Source: an uncultured Chloroflexia bacterium (GTDB lineage Bacteria; Chloroflexota; Anaerolineae; JAAYZQ01). Taken from it: DNA of 64,000 bases. The position numbers and the translations under genes are program-made. This document shows positions 2,186-16,559 of this stretch, in pieces. The DNA lies in the NCBI GenBank assembly GCA_963700285.1, contig CAVOXA010000010.1, positions 800,001-864,000 on the forward strand. The letters run 5' to 3'. The notes below the pieces were generated by a model. The model was not told where the DNA came from, did not search any database, and saw only the letters and a list, made by a program, of their open reading frames with translations. Positions within the stretch are counted from its first letter, which is position 1, and each line of letters opens with the position of its first letter.

Positions 2186-3108
2186 GGTTCTTCCGCAATT
2201 TTCGTGAAATTGCGGTCTGCAGTGTGCGAGTATAATAGGGACTTTACCAAACAGGAGGAACGTCCCCATGCTTGCCCAAGTGCTCTTGCCGTGCTCGACC
2301 AATCTGGAGCTTGACGAAGCAGTTGTTGAGGATGAAGTGATCACCGTAACGGTCAACTCGCAGCGGACAGACGCAGGCTGTCGGACATACCATCAATCGT
2401 CTGCGCGGGTACAGAGCCGCTATTGGCGAATAGTGGCCGATTTATCGTGTGCCGAACGCAGTGTTCGACTTCACTTGCGAGTCCGTCCCTTCTTCTGTGA
2501 CAATGCAGTGTGCAAACGCAAGACCTTTGCCGAAAGGTTTCCAGGAATCGTTGCACCCTATTCCCGGCGAACCAGTCGCCTGGCTGCCACACGGCGTCGG
2601 TATACGTGAAGAGAAAGAAGATGATTCACTGCTGACCAAGTTAGAACAAAGACAACAAGGATACTCGGGCTCGCGTCCATTGGTCAGCCGTTGGGCGGCG
2701 CAGATGCGCAAGCAGGAGCCCACGCTCTCAACAGATGCTCAAGTGCATGTCAAACCGAAAAGGCAGGTGAAACGAGCCTGGTCGGCACGGTACGCCGTTT
2801 GGTTGCTTTTCAGCCAGCTAGAAACATTGTCTGCGACCGCTATGCCAAGTCCATGGAACCTTGGTTGACCGCTGTGATTGAGTCCAAGATTCCAGAACTG
2901 AATGGCTTTGCCCGAAGCCTCAGTCGAGACAAAGATGCGGTTCTCGCTGCTTTGTCATTGCCTTGGAGCAACGGGCAGGTTGAAGGACAAGTCAACCGTC
3001 TGAAACTGATCAAACGTCAGATGTACGGGCGGGCCAAGTTCGATCTGCTCCGCTTGCGGGTCTTGGCCCACTCATGATCGTAGCTTTCACGGAAATTGCG
3101 GAAGAGCC
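2186..3108 (+). mobile_element. Internally deleted ISL3-family insertion sequence
   Basis: 24-bp terminal IRs (2186-2209 and 3085-3108, 22/24 match, starting GG). N-terminal ISL3 zinc-finger region (..FFCDNAVCKRKTFAE) and C-terminal WSNGQVEGQVNRLKLIKRQMYGRAKFDLLR. Only 923 bp and frames are broken. Confidence 0.85.
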
Positions 3109-3803: not shown

Positions 3804-3827
3804 TAGACAGTGCATGGAGGACGATGG

Positions 3828-4373
3828 ATGGACCAAGAGCAGACCTGGATCGAAGGCGCGCTCAAGGGGGACACAGCGGCCTTTGGCCGGCTGGTAGAGG
3901 CCTATGAGCGGCCGGTTTACAATCTGACCTATCGCATGTTGGGCGATCCCGCCGAGGCGGAGGACGCCGCCCAGGAGACCTTTCTGCGGGCCTACACCAA
4001 GCTGGCCACCTACCAGCCCAGCCGCAAGTTCGTCAACTGGCTGTTGTCCATTGCCTCGCACCACTGCATCGACCGCCTGCGTAAGAGGGGGCGGGCGCCG
4101 CAGCTCTCGCTGGAGGGGCCACTGCCGCCCCAGTGGCTGACCAGCAGCGCGCCGCGGCCCGACGAGGTGGTGGACAGGAAGCAGAAGCGCGAGCGCGTGC
4201 GGGATTCGCTGGAGACGCTGCCACCCGACTATCGGGCGGCCATCGTGCTCCGCTACTGGTACAACTACTCCTACCAGGAGATCGCCGGCCTGATGGACAC
4301 CACCGAGAGCGCCATCAAGTCGCGCCTTCACCGGGCGCGGCGGATGCTGGCCGGGCAGCTGGAAGCCGCTTAG
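3828..4373 (+). CDS. ECF RNA polymerase sigma-70 factor (SigW-like)
   Basis: AEDAAQETFLRAY (region 2) and YSYQEIA..ESAIKSRLHRAR (region 4); RBS GGAGG. Confidence 0.95.
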   Translation: MDQEQTWIEGALKGDTAAFGRLVEAYERPVYNLTYRMLGDPAEAEDAAQETFLRAYTKLATYQPSRKFVNWLLSIASHHCIDRLRKRGRAPQLSLEGPLPPQWLTSSAPRPDEVVDRKQKRERVRDSLETLPPDYRAAIVLRYWYNYSYQEIAGLMDTTESAIKSRLHRARRMLAGQLEAA

Positions 4374-4387
4374 AGGAAGAATGATTG

Positions 4388-4467
4388 AACCACAGAGACA
4401 CGGAGAACACAGAGAAAGCTCAGAAGGTTTTGGGGTTCTCTGCGTCCTCTGCGTCTCCGCGGTGAAA
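4388..4467. repeat. REP-like inverted repeat (CACAGAGACACGGAG / CTCTGCGTCTCCGCGGT type)
   Basis: Imperfect intergenic inverted repeat aaccacagagacacggagaacacagag ... ctctgcgtcctctgcgtctccgcggt. Confidence 0.7.
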
Positions 4468-4499
4468 GTACAGGGACAGACCGGGCACGGGGGAGAGAC

Positions 4500-5090
4500 G
4501 TGATGGATGATGCGATGGAATGCAAGCAAGGCGAACAGATGACGATGCTTATGTCACTGTCCCTGGACGGCATGTTGGATCGGGATGGCCAGCACCGCTT
4601 GGAGCGGCATGTGGCTGCCTGCGCCTCATGTCGGTGGGAATGGCAGGCCATGCGCCAGGTATCGAACCTGTTCGAGGCGGAACCAATGGTTGGTCCACCT
4701 TTAGGCTTTGCTGTCCGCATCGAGCGGCGGTTGGAGGCGAAGGCTGTGCAGCGGAAGCGGACCTTTGGCGGTGCGGCGGTGGTGACAAGCTGGCTGTCGC
4801 TGGCGGGCATGACGGTCGGCGCCGTGGTGCTGGTCGTTCTCGGGGTCATGGGCTGGCAGTGGTTCGGCTCGCTGGGCTCAGTACAGACGGGGGCCAGCGC
4901 CCTGTCGCAGGTAGCCGGCAACGTGGGCCTGCTGGGTAGGGGAGCCAGTTTCTTCTTGGGCGAGGCGCTGCTGCGTTATGGCCTGCCCCTGGTGGCCCTG
5001 CTGGCCGTTGGCCTGACCGTACTGGCCGGTGCCTGGACCTGGATGGTGGTGAAACGGCCAGGTGGCTCGCGGCGTAATGGATTTGTGTAG
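4500..5090 (+). CDS. Zinc-finger (zf-HC2) membrane anti-sigma factor
   Basis: LDG..L..HVAACASC (HxxxCxxC) followed by TM helices; directly downstream of the ECF sigma. Confidence 0.85.
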   Translation: MMDDAMECKQGEQMTMLMSLSLDGMLDRDGQHRLERHVAACASCRWEWQAMRQVSNLFEAEPMVGPPLGFAVRIERRLEAKAVQRKRTFGGAAVVTSWLSLAGMTVGAVVLVVLGVMGWQWFGSLGSVQTGASALSQVAGNVGLLGRGASFFLGEALLRYGLPLVALLAVGLTVLAGAWTWMVVKRPGGSRRNGFV

Positions 5091-5215
5091 CGGGGCTCGG
5101 TCAGGAGGCCTTCGCCCATCAAAGGTGGCGGGGCTCGGGCCTGACAGTTGGAGACCTTCGCATAGAGAGACCCAGCACCGACTGTTTACGGCGGTGCAAG
5201 ACAAGGAGGTTGGCT

Positions 5216-6505
5216 GTGAAAAAGCGAGTGTTGTCGCTGGGTTTGTTGGTGCTGCTTTTGCTGTTGCTTGCAACTTCGGCCCTGGCGGCGGGGCCCATCG
5301 TATTTGACGAAAACGGGCGGATCTTTGTAGACGAGGACCTGCGGCTGGCGGAAGGCGAGATCTTTTACGGTGACGTGGGCATTTTTGACGGCAACCTCAT
5401 CGTGCCCCAGGGCGCCGCTGTGAAGGGCGATGTGTTTGTCACCAACGGCGACGCCGAGATCGACGGGGCCACCAGCGGTGACTTGGCCGTCATCAACGGC
5501 GACGTGGATCTGGCTGAGACGGGTGTCGTGGAGGGCGATCTCTTTGTTATGAGCGGCCACGTGAAGGTGGCCGGCCGGGTGGGCGGCGACCTTTCGGTCA
5601 TGTTCGGCGAGATGATGCTGGAGGGCACGGCCGACGTCGAGGGCAGCGCCACGGTCTTCTCGGGCAGCTACGAGCGGGAGACGGGTGCCCTGGTGCGGGG
5701 CGAAGAGATCCCCAACGTGCCCCTGCCCAAGGTGCCGTTCATTCCCGAGGTACCGCAGGTACGCGAGATCCCCGAAGTCCCAGCCCTGCCCAAGCTGACG
5801 CCGCCCGCGCCGCCTGTACCGCCCCTGTTCCACCAGCCCACCCTGGGCCAGCGCATCGGCAACTTTTTCGGGCGGGCCATGGGCGCCAGTTTCATGAGCC
5901 TCATCTTTATCGCTGTGGGTATCCTCCTCGTCCTGATATGGCCGCGGACCACCCACCGGGTGGCGGATTGTATTGCCGCCCTGCCGTTGCAGAGCTTTGG
6001 CCTGGGTTTGTTGACCTTTCTGATGGCCTTTGTGCTCGAGGCACTGGCCGTGCTGCTGATGATCCTCATTATCCTGGTGGCCACGCTGATGATCGGCACC
6101 ATAATCCTCATCCCCATTGGCCTGCTCCTGATCTTGCTCTCGGTGCTGGTCCTGCTGCCGGTGCCCCTGGCTCTGGTTGCCGGGGTGGTCCTGGGCTGGG
6201 TCGGCCTGGCCGAGATGGTCGGGCGCCGGCTGCTCAGGGCGCTGAAGGTCGACGCCGTGAAACCGCTGGGCGCCGTGATCGCCGGCCTGGTGGTCACCGT
6301 GCCGCTGGCCGCCATCTTGTGGGTGATCCAGCCGGCATGTTGCGCCTGGCCCTTTATTATTCTGCTTACCAGCGTGGGCCTGGGGGCCGTGATCCATACC
6401 CGCTTTGGTACGCAGAGTTGCCAGAGTTCTGGCCCGCACGAGCAGTTTGAGGCACTGCCCATGGACGCCATGGATGACGAGATCGGCCGGCCTGACGGCC
6501 CTTAA
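5216..6505 (+). CDS. Bactofilin/polymer-forming-like beta-helix membrane protein
   Basis: Signal peptide, repeated V.GD(L/V).V..G motifs, Pro-rich linker and multi-TM C-terminus; RBS AAGGAGG. Confidence 0.75.
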   Translation: MKKRVLSLGLLVLLLLLLATSALAAGPIVFDENGRIFVDEDLRLAEGEIFYGDVGIFDGNLIVPQGAAVKGDVFVTNGDAEIDGATSGDLAVINGDVDLAETGVVEGDLFVMSGHVKVAGRVGGDLSVMFGEMMLEGTADVEGSATVFSGSYERETGALVRGEEIPNVPLPKVPFIPEVPQVREIPEVPALPKLTPPAPPVPPLFHQPTLGQRIGNFFGRAMGASFMSLIFIAVGILLVLIWPRTTHRVADCIAALPLQSFGLGLLTFLMAFVLEALAVLLMILIILVATLMIGTIILIPIGLLLILLSVLVLLPVPLALVAGVVLGWVGLAEMVGRRLLRALKVDAVKPLGAVIAGLVVTVPLAAILWVIQPACCAWPFIILLTSVGLGAVIHTRFGTQSCQSSGPHEQFEALPMDAMDDEIGRPDGP

Positions 6506-8728: not shown

Positions 8729-11224
8729 GTGACAGCCGAACACCGTCCTGCCAGTGAATGTCCCAGTTGTGGCCGTTTCATCGGGCCCTACGGCAAGTGC
8801 CCCTACTGTGGCGCGGATGTCGGCCAGCGTATGGTGGTCCGCGCCTTCAAGGTTGGCAGTCTGTTGCTGGCCATCGGCGGTGTGGCAGTGCTGCTATATG
8901 CCGCGAGCCGGACACAAGTTCCGCCGGTAGAGATACGCAGCCTGGTGGGGACGATGAACTGGGCCTACGTCCGCCTCGAGGGAGTGGTCACTCGCCAGCC
9001 CACCCACGATCAGGCTGCCGGAACCCTCAGGTTCTGGCTGTGGGACGGCACAGGCGAGATCCTGGTCATCGCCTACCGCTCCGAAGCGGAAAAGCTGCTG
9101 GCCAGGGGCCTCGTACCGGTAATGGGTGACAACGTGGCCCTGGAGGGCACGCTGCGCATCAAGGATGATTTCCAATACTTGGTCCTCGATGTGCCCCAGA
9201 ATACCAAAGTCCGGCCGGCTGAGCCGCTCCAACTGCCCGTCGCCAGGGTGGACTTGGGCCTGCTGCACCAAACGGTGACGGTCCAAGGTGTGGTCCGCGA
9301 CGATCGCGTACCCTACCAGGGCTTGCGCATCTTGACGCTGCGCGACGATTCGGGCGAGGTTGACGTGACCCTCGCTACAGGGCCGGACACATTCCTGGGA
9401 GACCTGCCTGGGTTGAGCGTGGGCCAGCCGGTGCAGGTGACGGGGGCCGTGGACCAGTACAAGGGCACGGCGCAGATATCTGTAGGCCGCGGGAGCGACC
9501 TGGTGGTGCTAGATGAAGACCTGGCTATCGCGCCGTGGCGCCAGATTGGCGAACTCTCGACGCGGGATGTGGGGGGCATGGCCCTCATCGAGGGAACCAT
9601 CGTCGGGATTGATCCTTTCTCCGCCGGGGTCAAGTGTAGTCTGGACGATGGCACTGGTACAGCGACCATGCTCCTGTGGCAGGACCTGAGCAATTCCCTG
9701 GCAGAAGGGCAGGCGCTCGCCGCGGGGACCCAGGTCCGGGTCCAGGGCGAGGTGGCGGAATACCGGGGTGAGCTGGAGATCATACCTCAGATTCCATCTG
9801 ACGTGGCGGTCCTGGCGACCGGCTCGCCGGTCGTTGACTCGCGGCAGTTGGGTGAACTGGGGCCTGATGACGCTGGCCGAGTCGTGGCGGTGCAGGGGGT
9901 GCTTCGCTCGCTGCAGACCTTCTCCGCCGGGGTCAAGGGTACGCTGGACGACGATACCGGCGCAGTGACGTTGCTGCTGTGGCAGGACTTGTACGAAGCC
10001 CTGCCCGACCCCGTGCGCTTGGCGCCGGGGGCGGTCCTTGAGGTACAGGGCAAAGTCACTCTATACCAAGGCGAACTGGAGATCGTCCCCAGGACCCCGG
10101 CCGATCTGGTAGTGACTGGCCTGGTCGCGCTACCAACGGACCAGCGGGCCATCGACCAGGTCTCGGCCGGTGATGTCGGCCAAAGGATAGAGGTGTCGGG
10201 CCAGGTTGTGGAGGCGGTACCCTTTTCCAAGGGGATCCGCTATACCTTGGACGACGGTACAGGTACCTTAACTTTACTGATATGGCAGAACCTCTACAAG
10301 CAGATACCGGACGCCGGCCTGCTGGCCGCGGGCGCGGAGGTCGCGGTACAGGGCGAGGTAGTCGAGTACCATGGCGAACTGGAGGTCGTGCCCCAAATGC
10401 CGGCTGATGTGCGGGTGATTGCCCCCGCTGCAGTCGCCGTGGCGGCGCCCACAGTGACTGCGGAGGCCGCGGTCTCGCCAGAGGCAGCGCCCTCGCCGGC
10501 CGCGACACTTACACTGGCACCTCCAACTGCGCCGGCCACGACGAGCACCGTCGAGCCTCTGGTCCTGACGCCGGAACCGCCTACGCAACCCGTACCCTCG
10601 GCGACGGCAAAGGCCACGCTCACGCCCTCGTTCGAGACGAGGGCCATCGGCGCTATCTCTGCCGGCGATGTCGGGCGTACACTGACCATCGCCCAGGCCG
10701 GGATCGCCGGGGTCGATTACTTTTCCGCCGGTGTCAAATATACGCTGGTCGATGCGACCGGCAGCATCATTCTCCTGTTGTGGCAGAATATCCTGGAAGG
10801 GATCCCCGAGCGCTACGACCTGGTTCCCGGCAGCCAGGTCCGCGTCACCGGGGGTGTGGATCAGTACACCGGCCAGTTGGAGATCATCCCTGGGGATGGG
10901 GCTGCGCTCAAGGTGCTTTCCAGGGGCGAAGGCCTGCCCATTGAAGAGCGGCAGGCTGGCAATGTGACGGCCTCCGACGAGGGCCGCATCTTTGCCATCG
11001 AGGGATCCGTGACCCATACGGAGAACAAAGGCTGGCTCAAGGTGTGGCTCGGTGATGGGACGGGCGAGATCCTGATCTTTGTGCCGGAGCGCACAGTGCC
11101 CTATCTGCCTTCCGGCATCGGAAATGGGGTGAGGCTGCGGGTCACCGGTGAGGTGGATATTTACCAGAACGTCATCGAGATCATCCCTCTGGCCGGGGCG
11201 GACGTTGAGGTTCAGGGGCCATGA
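8729..11224 (+). CDS. Membrane-anchored protein with N-terminal zinc ribbon and seven tandem OB-fold domains
   Basis: CPSC..CPYC, one TM helix, then seven repeats of V.G.V....LxDxTG.....W....G.xVxVxGxVxxYxGxxEIxP, with a Pro/Thr/Ala linker between repeats 5 and 6. Confidence 0.85.
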   Translation: MTAEHRPASECPSCGRFIGPYGKCPYCGADVGQRMVVRAFKVGSLLLAIGGVAVLLYAASRTQVPPVEIRSLVGTMNWAYVRLEGVVTRQPTHDQAAGTLRFWLWDGTGEILVIAYRSEAEKLLARGLVPVMGDNVALEGTLRIKDDFQYLVLDVPQNTKVRPAEPLQLPVARVDLGLLHQTVTVQGVVRDDRVPYQGLRILTLRDDSGEVDVTLATGPDTFLGDLPGLSVGQPVQVTGAVDQYKGTAQISVGRGSDLVVLDEDLAIAPWRQIGELSTRDVGGMALIEGTIVGIDPFSAGVKCSLDDGTGTATMLLWQDLSNSLAEGQALAAGTQVRVQGEVAEYRGELEIIPQIPSDVAVLATGSPVVDSRQLGELGPDDAGRVVAVQGVLRSLQTFSAGVKGTLDDDTGAVTLLLWQDLYEALPDPVRLAPGAVLEVQGKVTLYQGELEIVPRTPADLVVTGLVALPTDQRAIDQVSAGDVGQRIEVSGQVVEAVPFSKGIRYTLDDGTGTLTLLIWQNLYKQIPDAGLLAAGAEVAVQGEVVEYHGELEVVPQMPADVRVIAPAAVAVAAPTVTAEAAVSPEAAPSPAATLTLAPPTAPATTSTVEPLVLTPEPPTQPVPSATAKATLTPSFETRAIGAISAGDVGRTLTIAQAGIAGVDYFSAGVKYTLVDATGSIILLLWQNILEGIPERYDLVPGSQVRVTGGVDQYTGQLEIIPGDGAALKVLSRGEGLPIEERQAGNVTASDEGRIFAIEGSVTHTENKGWLKVWLGDGTGEILIFVPERTVPYLPSGIGNGVRLRVTGEVDIYQNVIEIIPLAGADVEVQGP

Positions 11225-12540
11225 ACTATCTGGTTCTGGTGGGCGCGGCGCTGGTCGGTACGGTCCTGTCGGCGTTTCTGTCCTGTATCCCGGCGCTGCA
11301 CATCTACAACGTGGCCGCCCTGCTGGTTGTCCTGGCCGTCAAGGTCCGAGGGCTGGTGCCCGACGAGCCTTTGGCCATGTTCATGCTGGGCTTGGTGGTC
11401 GGCTACGCGGTATTGAACACGATCCCCAGCATCTTTCTGGGCGCGCCGGACGATAGTACCGTCTTTGTCGTGCTTCCCGGGCAAAAGTACCTGATGGAGC
11501 GCAGGGGGTACGAGGCCGCAGTACTAACGGGGGTAGGCGGGCTGGGCGGACTGCTGGTACTGCTCCTTCTGGCCCCGGTCATGCCCACGGTTTTGCCCAT
11601 CGTCCGCAGGGTGGTCGGGCCGCACCTGCATTGGATCCTGGGGGCGGTGATCCTGTTCATGCTGATGAGCGAGTGGCCCAAGGGATCTGACCGAGGCAGT
11701 ACCGGCATGGCCAGGTTTCTCGACGCCTGGCGTTCGGTGGGGGCGGGGCTGCTGACCTTTCTGCTGTCAGGCATGCTGGGCTTCATCCTGTTCTACGGCA
11801 ACCTGGTGCCGACAGAGATGGCCTTTCAGAACCTGATGCCGGCCTTTGTCGGTCTTTTTGCCATGCCCTGGGTGTTGCAGAACATCATCTCCCGGGCCCA
11901 GGTGCCGGCCCAACACGTGGCCGGATCGGTGGACCTTTCGCCGGGGTTGATTGCCCGTGGGGTGGGCGCCGGCGCCTTGGGTGGTCTCTTTGCCGCCTTT
12001 TTCCCGGTTGTGACAGGGGGCATCGGTGGTTTTCTGGCGGGCCATGCCACTGCCCAGCGTGATGACCGGCTGTTTATTGTCAGCCAGGGGGCCAGCAAGC
12101 TGATCTACTATGTGGGGGCCTTTATCTTTTTCTTTGTACCGGGGTTGCACCTGACCCGCGGAGGGATGGCCTGGATGCTGAGCGTGCTCTATACGCCCCG
12201 TACGCCGGCCATCTACTGGGTAGCCATCGCGGCGATGCTCATCAGCGGGGCGCTGGCTTTTCTGATGCTGCTCTGGCTCAGCCGGGGAGCCATCCGGCTC
12301 GTGACGCACGTTGACTATCGGTGGATTTCGGCCGCGACACTGCTGGTATTGGTTTCCATTGTGCTGCTGCTGACGGGCTGGGGTGGGCTGCTCATCGCCT
12401 TGGCGGCTACGGGCATCGGCCTGCTGCCGGTGATGTGGGGGGCAAGGCGCATGAACTGCATGGGCGTCCTGTTACTGCCCCTAACGTTGAGTCTGGCTGG
12501 CCATGGGACGACGGTGGCTAGCTGGTTGGGATTGATCTAG
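11221..12540 (+). CDS. Archaeal-type TctA-like (DUF112) permease
   Basis: IPALHIYN, IPSIFLGAPDD..VLPGQKYLMERRGYEA motif; about 12 TM; ATGA overlap with the OB-fold gene; no tctB/tctC nearby. Confidence 0.8.
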   Translation: MNYLVLVGAALVGTVLSAFLSCIPALHIYNVAALLVVLAVKVRGLVPDEPLAMFMLGLVVGYAVLNTIPSIFLGAPDDSTVFVVLPGQKYLMERRGYEAAVLTGVGGLGGLLVLLLLAPVMPTVLPIVRRVVGPHLHWILGAVILFMLMSEWPKGSDRGSTGMARFLDAWRSVGAGLLTFLLSGMLGFILFYGNLVPTEMAFQNLMPAFVGLFAMPWVLQNIISRAQVPAQHVAGSVDLSPGLIARGVGAGALGGLFAAFFPVVTGGIGGFLAGHATAQRDDRLFIVSQGASKLIYYVGAFIFFFVPGLHLTRGGMAWMLSVLYTPRTPAIYWVAIAAMLISGALAFLMLLWLSRGAIRLVTHVDYRWISAATLLVLVSIVLLLTGWGGLLIALAATGIGLLPVMWGARRMNCMGVLLLPLTLSLAGHGTTVASWLGLI

Positions 12541-12568: not shown

Positions 12569-13507
12569 ATGTCACATCCGTTTGAAGTAGGCAAGACCTA
12601 TCGGAATCGAAACGGCGAGTACATCGTGCAGGCCGTCGACGGCGACCAGATGACCATCCGCTACGTGAGTGGGGGAACACTGCAGACCAGCGCCGCCATC
12701 CAGGCCCGCATCTGGGAGAACATCCACTTTGAGTACCAGATTGAGCAGGAAGAAGAGAAGCGCAGTCTAGCCAGAGATGCTAGACTAGAGGCCAGAAAAC
12801 GCAAGGCTGCTGCCCAAAAGGCCCTGGCCGCACCCAAGTACGGGGGCTTTCAGGAGGGAGACTTTGAGCTTAAGAAGCGGGGGATCGCCTGGTCGGGCCG
12901 GGAGCAGGCGGGCAAGGCCCTGGCGTACCAATTGGGCCAGCGTGTCGAAGGGAGTTTTGGTTCCTGGATTGTACCCCGCAAGTCGCAGGTCCACGTGGCC
13001 CGCAAAGAGCACTATGATCGGGACGCGCGCGACACCAACGCGATGTTTTTTGTGACCGTGGATGAGGGTGGCGTGAACTATGGTTTCCGGACGGGCAGAC
13101 CCAACGGCAAGGAAGACGCCGGGTGGCCCTGGTCGACCCTCATAGCGATTCTGGCCGATGACAAGGAGGTACGACAAGCTCTTCGGGCGGCGATGAAAGA
13201 CCAGGGCCTGACCCTGGACGTCTATGCTGAGGAGATCAGCTACCAGCAGGTCGGGCAGATCCTGCTCGAGGGCAGAGGATTCCTTTGGCAGCACGAGACC
13301 GCGGAACAAGAGATAACGCAGAAGATGAACTGGAATCAACTCGTAGAATACCTCGAGACCGTGACGCCCAACAAGCGCTGCGATCTCTATCTGCGCAAAC
13401 ACCTCACCGCCGAGGCCGCGCTGGAACTGGGTGCGGCTGCCACGGATGAGATTGCCGGTGTCTTTGAATCTCTGATGCCGGTGTATGACGCCAGTGTGGT
13501 GGCCTAG
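12569..13507 (+). CDS. Hypothetical soluble protein
   Basis: Strong RBS GGAGG; 312-aa ORF with small N-terminal beta domain and a charged helix. Confidence 0.75.
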   Translation: MSHPFEVGKTYRNRNGEYIVQAVDGDQMTIRYVSGGTLQTSAAIQARIWENIHFEYQIEQEEEKRSLARDARLEARKRKAAAQKALAAPKYGGFQEGDFELKKRGIAWSGREQAGKALAYQLGQRVEGSFGSWIVPRKSQVHVARKEHYDRDARDTNAMFFVTVDEGGVNYGFRTGRPNGKEDAGWPWSTLIAILADDKEVRQALRAAMKDQGLTLDVYAEEISYQQVGQILLEGRGFLWQHETAEQEITQKMNWNQLVEYLETVTPNKRCDLYLRKHLTAEAALELGAAATDEIAGVFESLMPVYDASVVA

Positions 13508-14484: not shown

Positions 14485-15045
14485 ATGATGAGTGACTTGT
14501 TTGACAAACTAATGGAAAGCGCGGGACAGGTGATTTCGGAGGTAGACAAGGGAGGACAGATCCAATCGGCGGTTGGTGGCCTGCGCCAGCGGATGGTGGA
14601 TGCTGAGCGCAACCGCAAGATCAACCTGGTGAAGCAGCAGATCCGGGACCTGCAGTCGCAGGAGGCCCAAACCATCAGCGCCCTCAGCGCACAGGTACTG
14701 GCCTTGCACGAGGCCGGGACGCTCACCCAGCCGGAACTGAAGAGCCTGTGCAGGAACGTGGATGAGATCCGGGTTCAGATCCGGGAGCAGGAGGCGGAGC
14801 TGAAAGCGATACAACCTGTACAGCCCAAACCAGTTGCTAGCGCCCAGTGCCCCCACTGCGGGGCGTCCGTCACCGCTGAGGGTACCTTTTGCCAAACCTG
14901 TGGCGGTCGCCTGACCAAAGAGCAAAAACCGGATCCTATCCGCTTCTGCGTTCACTGCGGCGCTCAACTACGCGAGGGTGCGCGCTTTTGCCCCAAGTGC
15001 GGCCAGACGGTGCCGCAAGGCCAGGAAACGGCTCCAACATCATGA
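14485..15045 (+). CDS. Coiled-coil plus double zinc ribbon protein
   Basis: Heptad region followed by four CxxC pairs (CPHC, CQTC, CVHC, CPKC). Confidence 0.8.
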   Translation: MMSDLFDKLMESAGQVISEVDKGGQIQSAVGGLRQRMVDAERNRKINLVKQQIRDLQSQEAQTISALSAQVLALHEAGTLTQPELKSLCRNVDEIRVQIREQEAELKAIQPVQPKPVASAQCPHCGASVTAEGTFCQTCGGRLTKEQKPDPIRFCVHCGAQLREGARFCPKCGQTVPQGQETAPTS

Positions 15046-16079
15046 AGGGCATCGCCCATTTTGCTACGGGCCTCGCCGTGGCGAGTTTTTTCCCTGGCGT
15101 TGTCCACAGTGCAGCCCAAAGCTCAAGCTTTGGCTTGGTACTGGGCGGGCTAGCGGGGTTGCTACCGGATACCCTGGACTTCAAATTCTTTCGCTACTTT
15201 GAGCGGGTCGACGACGAGATCGACCCAGCCAAGATCACCACCACTGAGGGATACCCTGATCCCCAGGCCATGGCCCAGCGGATCGCGGCGGCCATGAACC
15301 ATGCCTACAAGCGTAATACCAGGACCAAAGTACAACTGCATACGCTCCGGCTGGGGACTGACCTCTGGCGTCAGTATAGCGTAACCCTGGATGCGGTGAG
15401 CAGGCAGGTCCTGGTTCGTATCGGACCGATTGTGACCACAGGGCAAGTACCCTATGTCGGCAGTGAGATCTCCGGTCTAGCACCTGGACAAGTGCAGGTC
15501 GAGGCGCCTATCCTGCATACCTACGACGCAGAGACCAAGATTGACATTTTCAGCGGCCCCTCTCTGGCCTTCGAGCGCGCCGATGATGCGGTCAAGGTGA
15601 CCTTTGTGCCCTGGCACCGCGTCTGGACCCACTCGCTGCTGATGGTGCTGCTTCTGGGAGCGATAGGCACCCTCATAGGCCCGGTATACGGCTTGGTCAT
15701 GGCCATGGCTGCCCTGGCCCATATTCTGGCAGATCAGATGGGTTGCATGGGCTGTAACCTCTTTTTCCCGCTGACCCGCAGCCGCGCGCCGGGACTCAGG
15801 TGGATGCGCTCCGGTGATGCGATCCCAAATTTCCTGACGGTTTGGATCAGCATGGCCGTCCTGTTTCTGAACCTTGACCGCTTTTCAGAAGCCCCCTCCA
15901 TTCCTGTATGGCCATACCTGCTGGGTATGATCATGGTTCCCTGTCTGTTCTTTCTCGGATTGGCAACATGGGATCGTCTGCGCAGCCACCGGCAGCCAGC
16001 GGCGTACCCGAAGAGGTTGGCTGTGGCAGCCATGGCGGCCGTCGAGGCGTTGGACGAAACCAGCGAGGTGGACATCTAG
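15042..16079 (+). CDS. Membrane metal-dependent hydrolase (YdjM/DUF457-like) with a large insertion
   Basis: MKGIAH, LLPDTLD, HRVWTHSL, HILAD motifs. Confidence 0.8.
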   Translation: MKGIAHFATGLAVASFFPGVVHSAAQSSSFGLVLGGLAGLLPDTLDFKFFRYFERVDDEIDPAKITTTEGYPDPQAMAQRIAAAMNHAYKRNTRTKVQLHTLRLGTDLWRQYSVTLDAVSRQVLVRIGPIVTTGQVPYVGSEISGLAPGQVQVEAPILHTYDAETKIDIFSGPSLAFERADDAVKVTFVPWHRVWTHSLLMVLLLGAIGTLIGPVYGLVMAMAALAHILADQMGCMGCNLFFPLTRSRAPGLRWMRSGDAIPNFLTVWISMAVLFLNLDRFSEAPSIPVWPYLLGMIMVPCLFFLGLATWDRLRSHRQPAAYPKRLAVAAMAAVEALDETSEVDI

Positions 16080-16115
16080 GCGCGATCTGTGTTATAATGC
16101 CCCCGGAGGTGATCG

Positions 16116-16559
16116 ATGAAACCAGGACGCGAGATCCCTGAAAGCACCCTGGCGCAACTCCGGGATGTGTGCAATGCAGACCCCTACCTGGCGGCTATCT
16201 ATATCTTTGGGCGGCAGCGCTCGGGCGATTGCGATCTAGCCGCACTGTTCACTGAAACTCCACCTTGGTCCGCGCGTCTCGATCTCGAGCTAGCCGTGGC
16301 AAAGGCTATAGAGCAGGAGGGAGTCGAGTTGATTGACCTGAGACGCATGCCCCTGGTCTTTCGTTTCGGGGTCGTCGATGAGGGAGAGCCTATCTATGTC
16401 GGGCAGCCCGAGGTGTTGGCCAATTTCATCGAAGAAACTATCGCCCGCTATGCAGCCTTCTATCCCCTTCTAGAGGCGCTCTACTGGAAAGTGGAGACCA
16501 GGCCGGTGCCCGAGGACATGCTGGACGACACACAGCCTGCCGCTTCTGGCATCTCCTGA
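16116..16559 (+). CDS. MntA-like minimal nucleotidyltransferase (degenerate)
   Basis: IYIFG..DCDLA, VELIDL..MPLVFRF..G.PIY; preceded by TGTTATAAT and GGAGG. Confidence 0.6.
   Translation: MKPGREIPESTLAQLRDVCNADPYLAAIYIFGRQRSGDCDLAALFTETPPWSARLDLELAVAKAIEQEGVELIDLRRMPLVFRFGVVDEGEPIYVGQPEVLANFIEETIARYAAFYPLLEALYWKVETRPVPEDMLDDTQPAASGIS

Follow-up and report, generated by a model that had tools for sequence, protein, structure and literature searches.

Which protein carries DNA across the membrane of naturally competent archaea is not settled, the foremost candidate being a TctA-like membrane protein (PMC10133366). A bacterial locus now raises a related question. In a 64,000-nucleotide stretch of DNA from an uncultured Chloroflexia bacterium (assembly GCA_963700285.1, contig CAVOXA010000010.1, positions 800,001 to 864,000; hereafter the window), a membrane-anchored protein with seven OB folds is encoded directly ahead of a TctA-like permease, and an initial annotation, made from the sequence alone, read the two genes as a candidate DNA uptake system independent of ComEC. 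What, then, is such a locus for? We find that the pair is co-inherited with a third gene, encoding a YdjM-like hydrolase, and we tentatively read the trio as a membrane module that captures outside nucleic acid, cuts it and brings it in as food.

The core of the locus consists of two open reading frames (ORFs) on the forward strand, one at 8729-11224 with a GTG start (831 amino acids, P0001) and one at 11221-12540 (439 amino acids, P0002), which share an ATGA overlap at 11221-11224, as originally described. Their third-codon-position GC content (GC3; 0.76 and 0.80, respectively) matches that of their neighbours. The YdjM-like gene sits 2.5 kb downstream of the permease gene, past three unrelated genes. 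The features are as follows, with the basis of each in brackets.

8729..11224, + strand: membrane-anchored seven-OB-fold protein, P0001, 831 amino acids (ORF; PF01336; AlphaFold2; Foldseek)
8759..8809, + strand: Cys4 zinc-ribbon-like motif C11/C14/C24/C27, predicted cytoplasmic (sequence)
8852..8908, + strand: one membrane helix at residues 42-60, a signal anchor with predicted N-in/C-out orientation (hydropathy; lysine/arginine bias)
8921..10420, + strand: OB repeats 1-5 (repeat analysis)
10424..10633, + strand: disordered Ala/Pro/Thr linker between OB5 and OB6 (model confidence)
10634..11215, + strand: OB repeats 6-7 (repeat analysis)
11221..12540, + strand: TctA-like polytopic membrane protein of the 'long' non-canonical subfamily, P0002, 439 amino acids (PF01970; tree)
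15042..16079, + strand: YdjM-like membrane metal-dependent hydrolase, P0423, 345 amino acids, the third co-inherited gene (PF04307; neighbourhood; co-occurrence)

The anatomy of P0001 is largely as first described. It matches PF01336 (E 2.5e-42), hydropathy gives one hydrophobic segment only (residues 42-60), and the AlphaFold2 model, with a mean predicted local distance difference test score (pLDDT) of 88.5, contains seven beta-barrel units, so that sequence, hydropathy and model together bear out the Cys4 ribbon, the single transmembrane (TM) anchor and the seven aromatic-bearing OB repeats (residues 65-162, 168-261, 269-362, 370-463, 471-564, 636-730 and 739-829). The Pro/Thr stalk is also there, as an Ala/Pro/Thr stretch at residues 566-635 (pLDDT <50 at 571-632), and it lies between OB5 and OB6 rather than next to the membrane. 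Among P0001 and the 120 homologues listed, seven repeats are found in 65/121, five in 30, six in 24, and eight and four in 1 each, while across loci the number ranges from 1 to 9; OB1, bearing a conserved MN[WFY]A motif, is the sole repeat present in all homologues seen. A Cys4 motif falls within the first 70 residues of 68 of the 120 homologues listed and the ribbon is absent from those of Thermococcus and Desulfurococcales. Of 127 homologous N-termini, 110 have more lysine and arginine before the helix than after it, 13 have as many on either side and 4 have fewer, and from this N-side excess the ribbon is predicted to lie inside the cytoplasm and the OB array outside it, in agreement with the orientation first proposed.

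Several features of the array are those of nucleic-acid binders. Aromatic residues are kept at three columns of the OB repeats (47%, 71% and 81% of 600 repeats), which we take to be the aromatic positions of RPA and SSB. Foldseek matches of the OB model are to HIN200, CST and RPA, the best match of the OB1 profile is archaeal RPA32 (E 6e-4), and the OB region of P0001 matches that of the ExeM/NucH extracellular nucleases (E 3.2e-9, far under the whole-protein cut-off); a sequence search of the PDB with P0001 gave no significant match. Extracellular nucleases of the YhcR/ExeM kind act in DNA foraging. P0001 shares with them its predicted outward-facing OB repeats (a partial match to NF033681, and JGI names many homologues after YhcR), but it has no nuclease domain of its own, and any catalysis would fall to the separate YdjM-like protein.

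P0002 matches PF01970 (TctA) with 122.9 bits (cut-off 28.9, E 1.8e-35) and carries the IPSIFLGAP..LPG..RGYEA signature that had been picked out, at residues 68-99. The figure of about 12 TM helices holds on the alignment average (12 hydrophobic segments) and not on the single sequence (10), and is best taken as approximate. P0002 is the one PF01970 match in the host genome, and the lack of TctB and TctC genes nearby extends to that whole genome, in which neither PF07331 (TctB) nor PF03401 (TctC) is matched; the genome is estimated to be 89% complete, which bounds this and the other negatives given here for the host genome. Canonical TctABC systems (TC 2.A.80) have the PF01970 membrane domain in common with P0002 and differ as follows: canonical TctA is about 500 amino acids long, complete proteins reach some 300-560 bits with PF01970 where P0002 reaches 123, and they are accompanied by TctB and TctC. 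A full canonical tctC-tctB-tctA set was seen in a Thermococci-group genome (locus L227, genome G551) that also holds other TctA-like genes.

The phylogeny places P0002 apart from the canonical proteins, as had been anticipated. In a tree of 69 rows made with a quick method, canonical TctA (13 rows; support of 100 in the Shimodaira-Hasegawa-like approximate likelihood ratio test, SH-aLRT) branch apart from a non-canonical TctA-like group (SH-aLRT 100), with a very long branch to P0002. Within the latter lies a 'long' clade (35 rows, about 440 amino acids, SH-aLRT 100), which comprises P0002 and proteins from Thermococcus, Desulfurococcales, WOR-3, Kiritimatiellae/Verrucomicrobiota, Lentisphaerota and Anaerolineae, while 'short' proteins of about 375-430 amino acids make up the remainder of the group. 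By BLASTP, P0002 shares 40-44% identity with 8 archaeal long-type and 22-31% with 21 short-type proteins (a named long-type member, T. kodakarensis BAD86236.1 of the DUF112 family, is 40% identical), and it has no significant match among 12 canonical TctA (best E 0.037). Forcing P0002 among four canonical bacterial TctA in a 23-row tree was rejected (approximately unbiased test, p-AU 2e-45), whereas the test allowed a position in which it is sister to the whole of canonical TctA (p-AU 0.265). Since the latter result leaves room for more than one root, we do not claim the long-from-short order at which the quick tree hints. By its sequence, then, the permease is a non-canonical, archaeal-type TctA-like protein that does not belong inside canonical TctA. 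A further remote TctA-like family, of 452 amino acids and unmatched by the long or the short profile, occurs in some Thermococci-group genomes (L228:4503-5861, genome G512).

The model of the permease is confident (pLDDT 92.4). Foldseek returned no match to it at E <= 0.001, and a sequence search of the PDB with P0002 no significant match. VIA-align ranks the YS1/OPT transporter, a small-solute carrier, first (295 residues aligned, root-mean-square deviation 5.9) with a Z of 11.4, which falls below the level safe for helical proteins and may reflect a common helical arrangement, and it also lists DASS/ArsB-type carriers (Z 5.7-6.7). The modelled fold thus leans towards a carrier rather than a channel or pore. 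Longer, fused permeases were sought without a hit, which counts for little; two fusions occur among the representatives, P0280 and P0324, single records each, in which the permease is joined to OB-like repeats (judged by eye, without a profile match) or to a Cys4-TM segment.

One reading of such a protein would be a carrier of carboxylates or other small solutes that works without TctB and TctC, its neighbours being accessories, as has been proposed for stand-alone archaeal TctA. The PF01970 match and the apparently carrier-like model agree with it, and Makarova et al. suggested that archaeal arCOG04469 proteins are possible carboxylate transporters (PMC5898192; the TctC-free reading is drawn also from PMC5812351). 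We nevertheless hold it to be very improbable, given the lack of significant similarity to canonical TctA, the host genome without TctB or TctC and a near-obligate link to the OB array and the hydrolase that it leaves unexplained.

This link was found both in neighbourhoods and in whole genomes. Neighbourhoods were compared in the best 80 of 265 loci of metagenome relatives and the best 80 of 171 genome loci. An OB gene stands near the permease in 38/43 metagenome and 58/63 genome loci with at least 2 kb available upstream, and in 14/17 and 35/35, respectively, where each flank spans at least 5 kb. Bacteria and archaea alike conserve the pairing. In these last loci a YdjM-like gene is present in 10/17 and 28/35, mostly right after the permease. 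The whole-genome comparison covered 72 genomes that were not selected by neighbourhood, namely the host's own, 17 of its family, 24 other Chloroflexota and 30 of the Thermococci group. The long permease is present in 29 of the 72. Of these, 28 (all but G002) have the zinc-ribbon/TM/OB1 module and 28 (all but G414) the hydrolase, one copy of which has an internal stop; among genomes without the long permease, 0/43 have the OB module and 0/43 the hydrolase. As kin are among the genomes counted, these are not independent cases, and related loci went into the OB1 profile. The host itself has all three genes. The genes for the OB array, the long permease and the hydrolase are hence co-inherited as a trio, and the terms 'two-gene unit' and 'stand-alone' used in the initial annotation have to be given up. 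The module is rare and of scattered occurrence, with 4 strong matches and 1 weak one in a sample of 400 Chloroflexota genomes, and is present in 10/17 genomes of the host's own family.

Close relatives of the module are the long-type operons of the heat-loving archaea Thermococcus and Desulfurococcales, which share the permease subfamily (40% identity; SH-aLRT 100) and the order OB array-permease-hydrolase, and differ in lacking the Cys4 ribbon, in having 5-9 OB repeats and an OB-inserted hydrolase, and in being contiguous. No functional study of them was found in open-licence full text. A fourth component of the module was considered and rejected, the genes between OB gene and permease in other loci not being conserved. 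In many Anaerolineae loci a further gene, with 2 OB folds, stands between array and permease, and a second, divergent, lipoprotein-like OB-array gene lies beside a Thermococcus operon (L103:2465-3898, - strand). At L013 and L139 (2500-5740), three genes upstream of the permease occupy the usual site of the OB gene; one is presumably DNA-methyltransferase-like and two are without assigned identity.

P0423 matches PF04307 with 52.1 bits (cut-off 29), and H6, D43, D46, H192, H197, H227 and D231 are invariant in an alignment of 51 hydrolase sequences, the archaeal copies of which hold an inserted OB fold of the PF01336 type. A PDB sequence search with the hydrolase gave no significant match, that is, no solved relative by sequence. 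YdjM has been described as akin to S1/P1 nucleases and to phospholipase C (PMC8557891). If the hydrolase acted on phospholipid or a surface polymer, the trio would be an envelope or lipid module, in which a cationic or polymeric ligand is bound by the acidic OB repeats, some lipid-linked or small product is transported by the permease, and the transformation defect of the archaeal paralogue discussed below would be indirect. The net acidity of the repeats and a match to NF033674 fit such a module, as do the surface-biogenesis genes, e.g., archaeosortase, that a transformation screen in Methanococcus maripaludis also yielded (PMC10133366). However, the conserved aromatics are left aside by it, the best structural and profile matches of the array are nucleic-acid binders (RPA, HIN, CST), and the archaeal hydrolase contains an OB fold. 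Moreover, the module is present in bacterial and archaeal membranes alike, and the lipids of these differ. We regard an envelope function as decidedly unlikely.

As to ComEC, the host genome encodes an intact copy of 827 amino acids (G000:C1) with the membrane domain and a THADIDH motif, as well as comEA-type helix-hairpin-helix matches. PF03772, the competence domain of ComEC, is matched in 64/70 genome records (the misses being 5 archaea and one Anaerolineae), and among bacterial carriers of the module in 57/58 records, or 54/55 with three duplicates merged, three of the matches being fragments only. The trio thus coexists with comEC and does not replace it, and the claim of a 'ComEC-independent' system fails insofar as it meant a stand-in for a missing comEC. 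In the host, dprA is split over two frames (G000:C9:180205-180823), by a true frameshift or an assembly error, and no PF00437 pilus or secretion ATPase exceeds the cut-off, though most relatives have one. That the OB array might take the place of a pilus was rejected as a general rule, since a PF00437 ATPase over cut-off is present in 46/49 genomes, the 49 being 42 with the module and 7 kin without it.

The only experimental link for the wider family comes from methanogens. In M. maripaludis, MMJJ_13020, an OB-fold protein with a single TM segment, and MMJJ_13030, which is TctA-like and has 11, are each essential for transformation, for which pili and a secreted thermonuclease are also needed (Fonseca et al. 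2023, PMC10133366). The permease homologue SAMN04488571_104187 is likewise essential for DNA uptake in Methanoculleus thermophilus, and the TctA-like protein has been proposed, but not demonstrated, as the archaeal DNA transporter (PMC10133366). The initial annotation had given the M. maripaludis result correctly, and the parallel is closer than was thought because the tested partner, too, combines an OB fold with a single TM segment: in both cases a TM-anchored OB gene is coupled to a non-canonical TctA-like gene without TctB or TctC. The window locus differs in its long-type permease, in a partner that carries seven OB folds along with a Cys4 ribbon, in the co-inherited hydrolase and in its host, a bacterium that has comEC.

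Furthermore, the tested and the window permeases appear to be paralogues and not, as had been implied, orthologues. In the Thermococcus phylum group, PF01970 is matched in 90/100 genomes, many with two non-canonical copies. The short-type permease often adjoins a TM + OB gene (1-3 mostly weak OB matches), several other short loci having no such neighbour, while the long-type permease is flanked in Thermococci-group loci by a 5-9-repeat array and the hydrolase. The published reverse primer for MMJJ_13030 gives the C-terminus TILYFLKI-stop, a tail pattern found in 28/34 short-type and 0/83 long-type sequences. From these eight residues the tested methanogen permease is most likely of the short type, and so a paralogue of P0002.

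Could the trio nevertheless serve transformation? It would then be a second route, in effect a ComEC split over three genes, for an OB domain, a membrane passage and a metal nuclease that deals with the other strand, and importing long single strands for recombination, and several bacterial phyla and Thermococcales would share a DNA-import machine, unrelated to ComEC, that delivers transforming DNA alongside it. We consider this unlikely, if still credible, and the same doubt attaches to the parts that such a machine would have: a tricarboxylate-type carrier put to new use, an OB array that can expand (1-9 repeats) and a membrane nuclease of its own. The paralogous pair is, after all, essential for transformation in two methanogens (PMC10133366), and P. 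furiosus and T. kodakarensis are described as naturally transformable (PMC5099854); our data show that the latter encodes the long-type permease. ComEC combines an OB fold, a membrane domain and a metallo-nuclease. The three proteins mirror this layout, yet the likeness is one of parts only and there is no homology, PF03772 having no match in P0001 or P0002. Against a second route stand the near-universal comEC of bacterial carriers, the short-type C-terminus of the tested MMJJ_13030, the 16/30 Thermococci-group genomes that keep the short type without having the long one, the host's lack of a pilus ATPase over cut-off and its split dprA, and a modelled permease fold that appears carrier-like rather than pore-like.

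We therefore return to nutrition. In the feeding reading, the OB array would capture single-stranded nucleic acid outside the cytoplasm, the YdjM-like metal hydrolase would cut it, and the TctA-like carrier would import the short products as food, the three proteins presumably acting as a complex. This is suggested by the tie of the sister pair to DNA uptake together with an OB array of nucleic-acid type, by a co-inherited hydrolase of S1/P1-phospholipase C kin that gains an OB fold in archaea, and by a carrier-like permease in organisms that nearly all keep another uptake route. That other route, comEC in bacteria and the short-type pair in Thermococci, points to a different job for the trio. 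Feeding remains a tentative choice, while a role in nucleic-acid uptake of one kind or the other, feeding or transformation, we consider probable.

A number of observations weigh against feeding. All seven repeats of P0001 are net acidic (-1 to -8), where OB folds that bind single-stranded DNA combine fold and aromatics, both present here, with a basic binding surface, and the stress OB-fold family NF033674 sums to 44.5 bits against a cut-off of 35, with no single stretch over it. A phospholipase role has been proposed for YdjM (PMC8557891). In the window the YdjM-like gene is not contiguous with the pair, being three genes and 2.5 kb away, and in 8 extra carriers, chosen for a hydrolase-free locus, the OB gene is present in 8/8 and the hydrolase in only 4/8. 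The permease's best structural match has the low score noted above, the wider family's sole experimental link is to transformation and not to feeding, and binding, cleavage and transport by long-type members are predicted functions only.

The OB + TctA-like pair is already published for methanogens (PMC10133366). Open-licence PMC and bioRxiv text yielded no publication on the long subfamily, its link to the hydrolase or its bacterial members, and subscription papers or supplementary tables could hold them. Established here are the division into long and short permeases, a probable paralogy between P0002 and the tested gene, co-inheritance at genome level and coexistence with comEC. Within the TctA-like family the short type is widespread, and the long type, which comes with OB array and hydrolase, is patchy, the latter shown in Chloroflexota, Kiritimatiellota/Verrucomicrobiota, Lentisphaerota and WOR-3 bacteria. 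If foraging is its purpose, it would be an unrecognised route of extracellular DNA and RNA turnover in anaerobic heterotrophs; if transformation, a non-ComEC uptake route in bacteria. As both types often occur in one Thermococcus genome, a tractable host could tell a transformation paralogue from a feeding paralogue.

Around the trio, a promoter scan gave no site ahead of the P0001 gene and 2 sites in all, without excess over shuffled sequence (mean 2.3); a strong sigma-70-like site (11/12, extended -10) lies at 16069-16098, ahead of an ORF at 16116. Short contigs from RNA libraries (depth 2-3) cover both core genes and also their neighbours, which is no demonstration of transcription. Shares in sequencing runs were small, and a plasmid search gave two distant cyanobacterial matches only. 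Between permease and hydrolase, a comparison with a 16-locus query set showed homologues of two genes in close loci: a 312-amino-acid ORF without a Pfam or NCBIfam match (12569-13507; at least 11 loci), and a coiled-coil protein with a double zinc ribbon whose gene shares an ATGA overlap with the YdjM-like gene (14485-15045; at least 7 loci). Upstream of the trio, two adjacent cohesin-domain proteins are encoded at 40-1733, of which the second has a TM helix and ends in a zinc ribbon at its C-terminus, and a gene run at 3810-6505 includes a bactofilin-domain membrane protein (PF04519) together with what we take to be an extracytoplasmic-function (ECF) sigma factor and an anti-sigma factor. Between these, at 2268-3077, short ORFs overlap in several frames and are presumably the remains of a decayed ISL3-type transposase.

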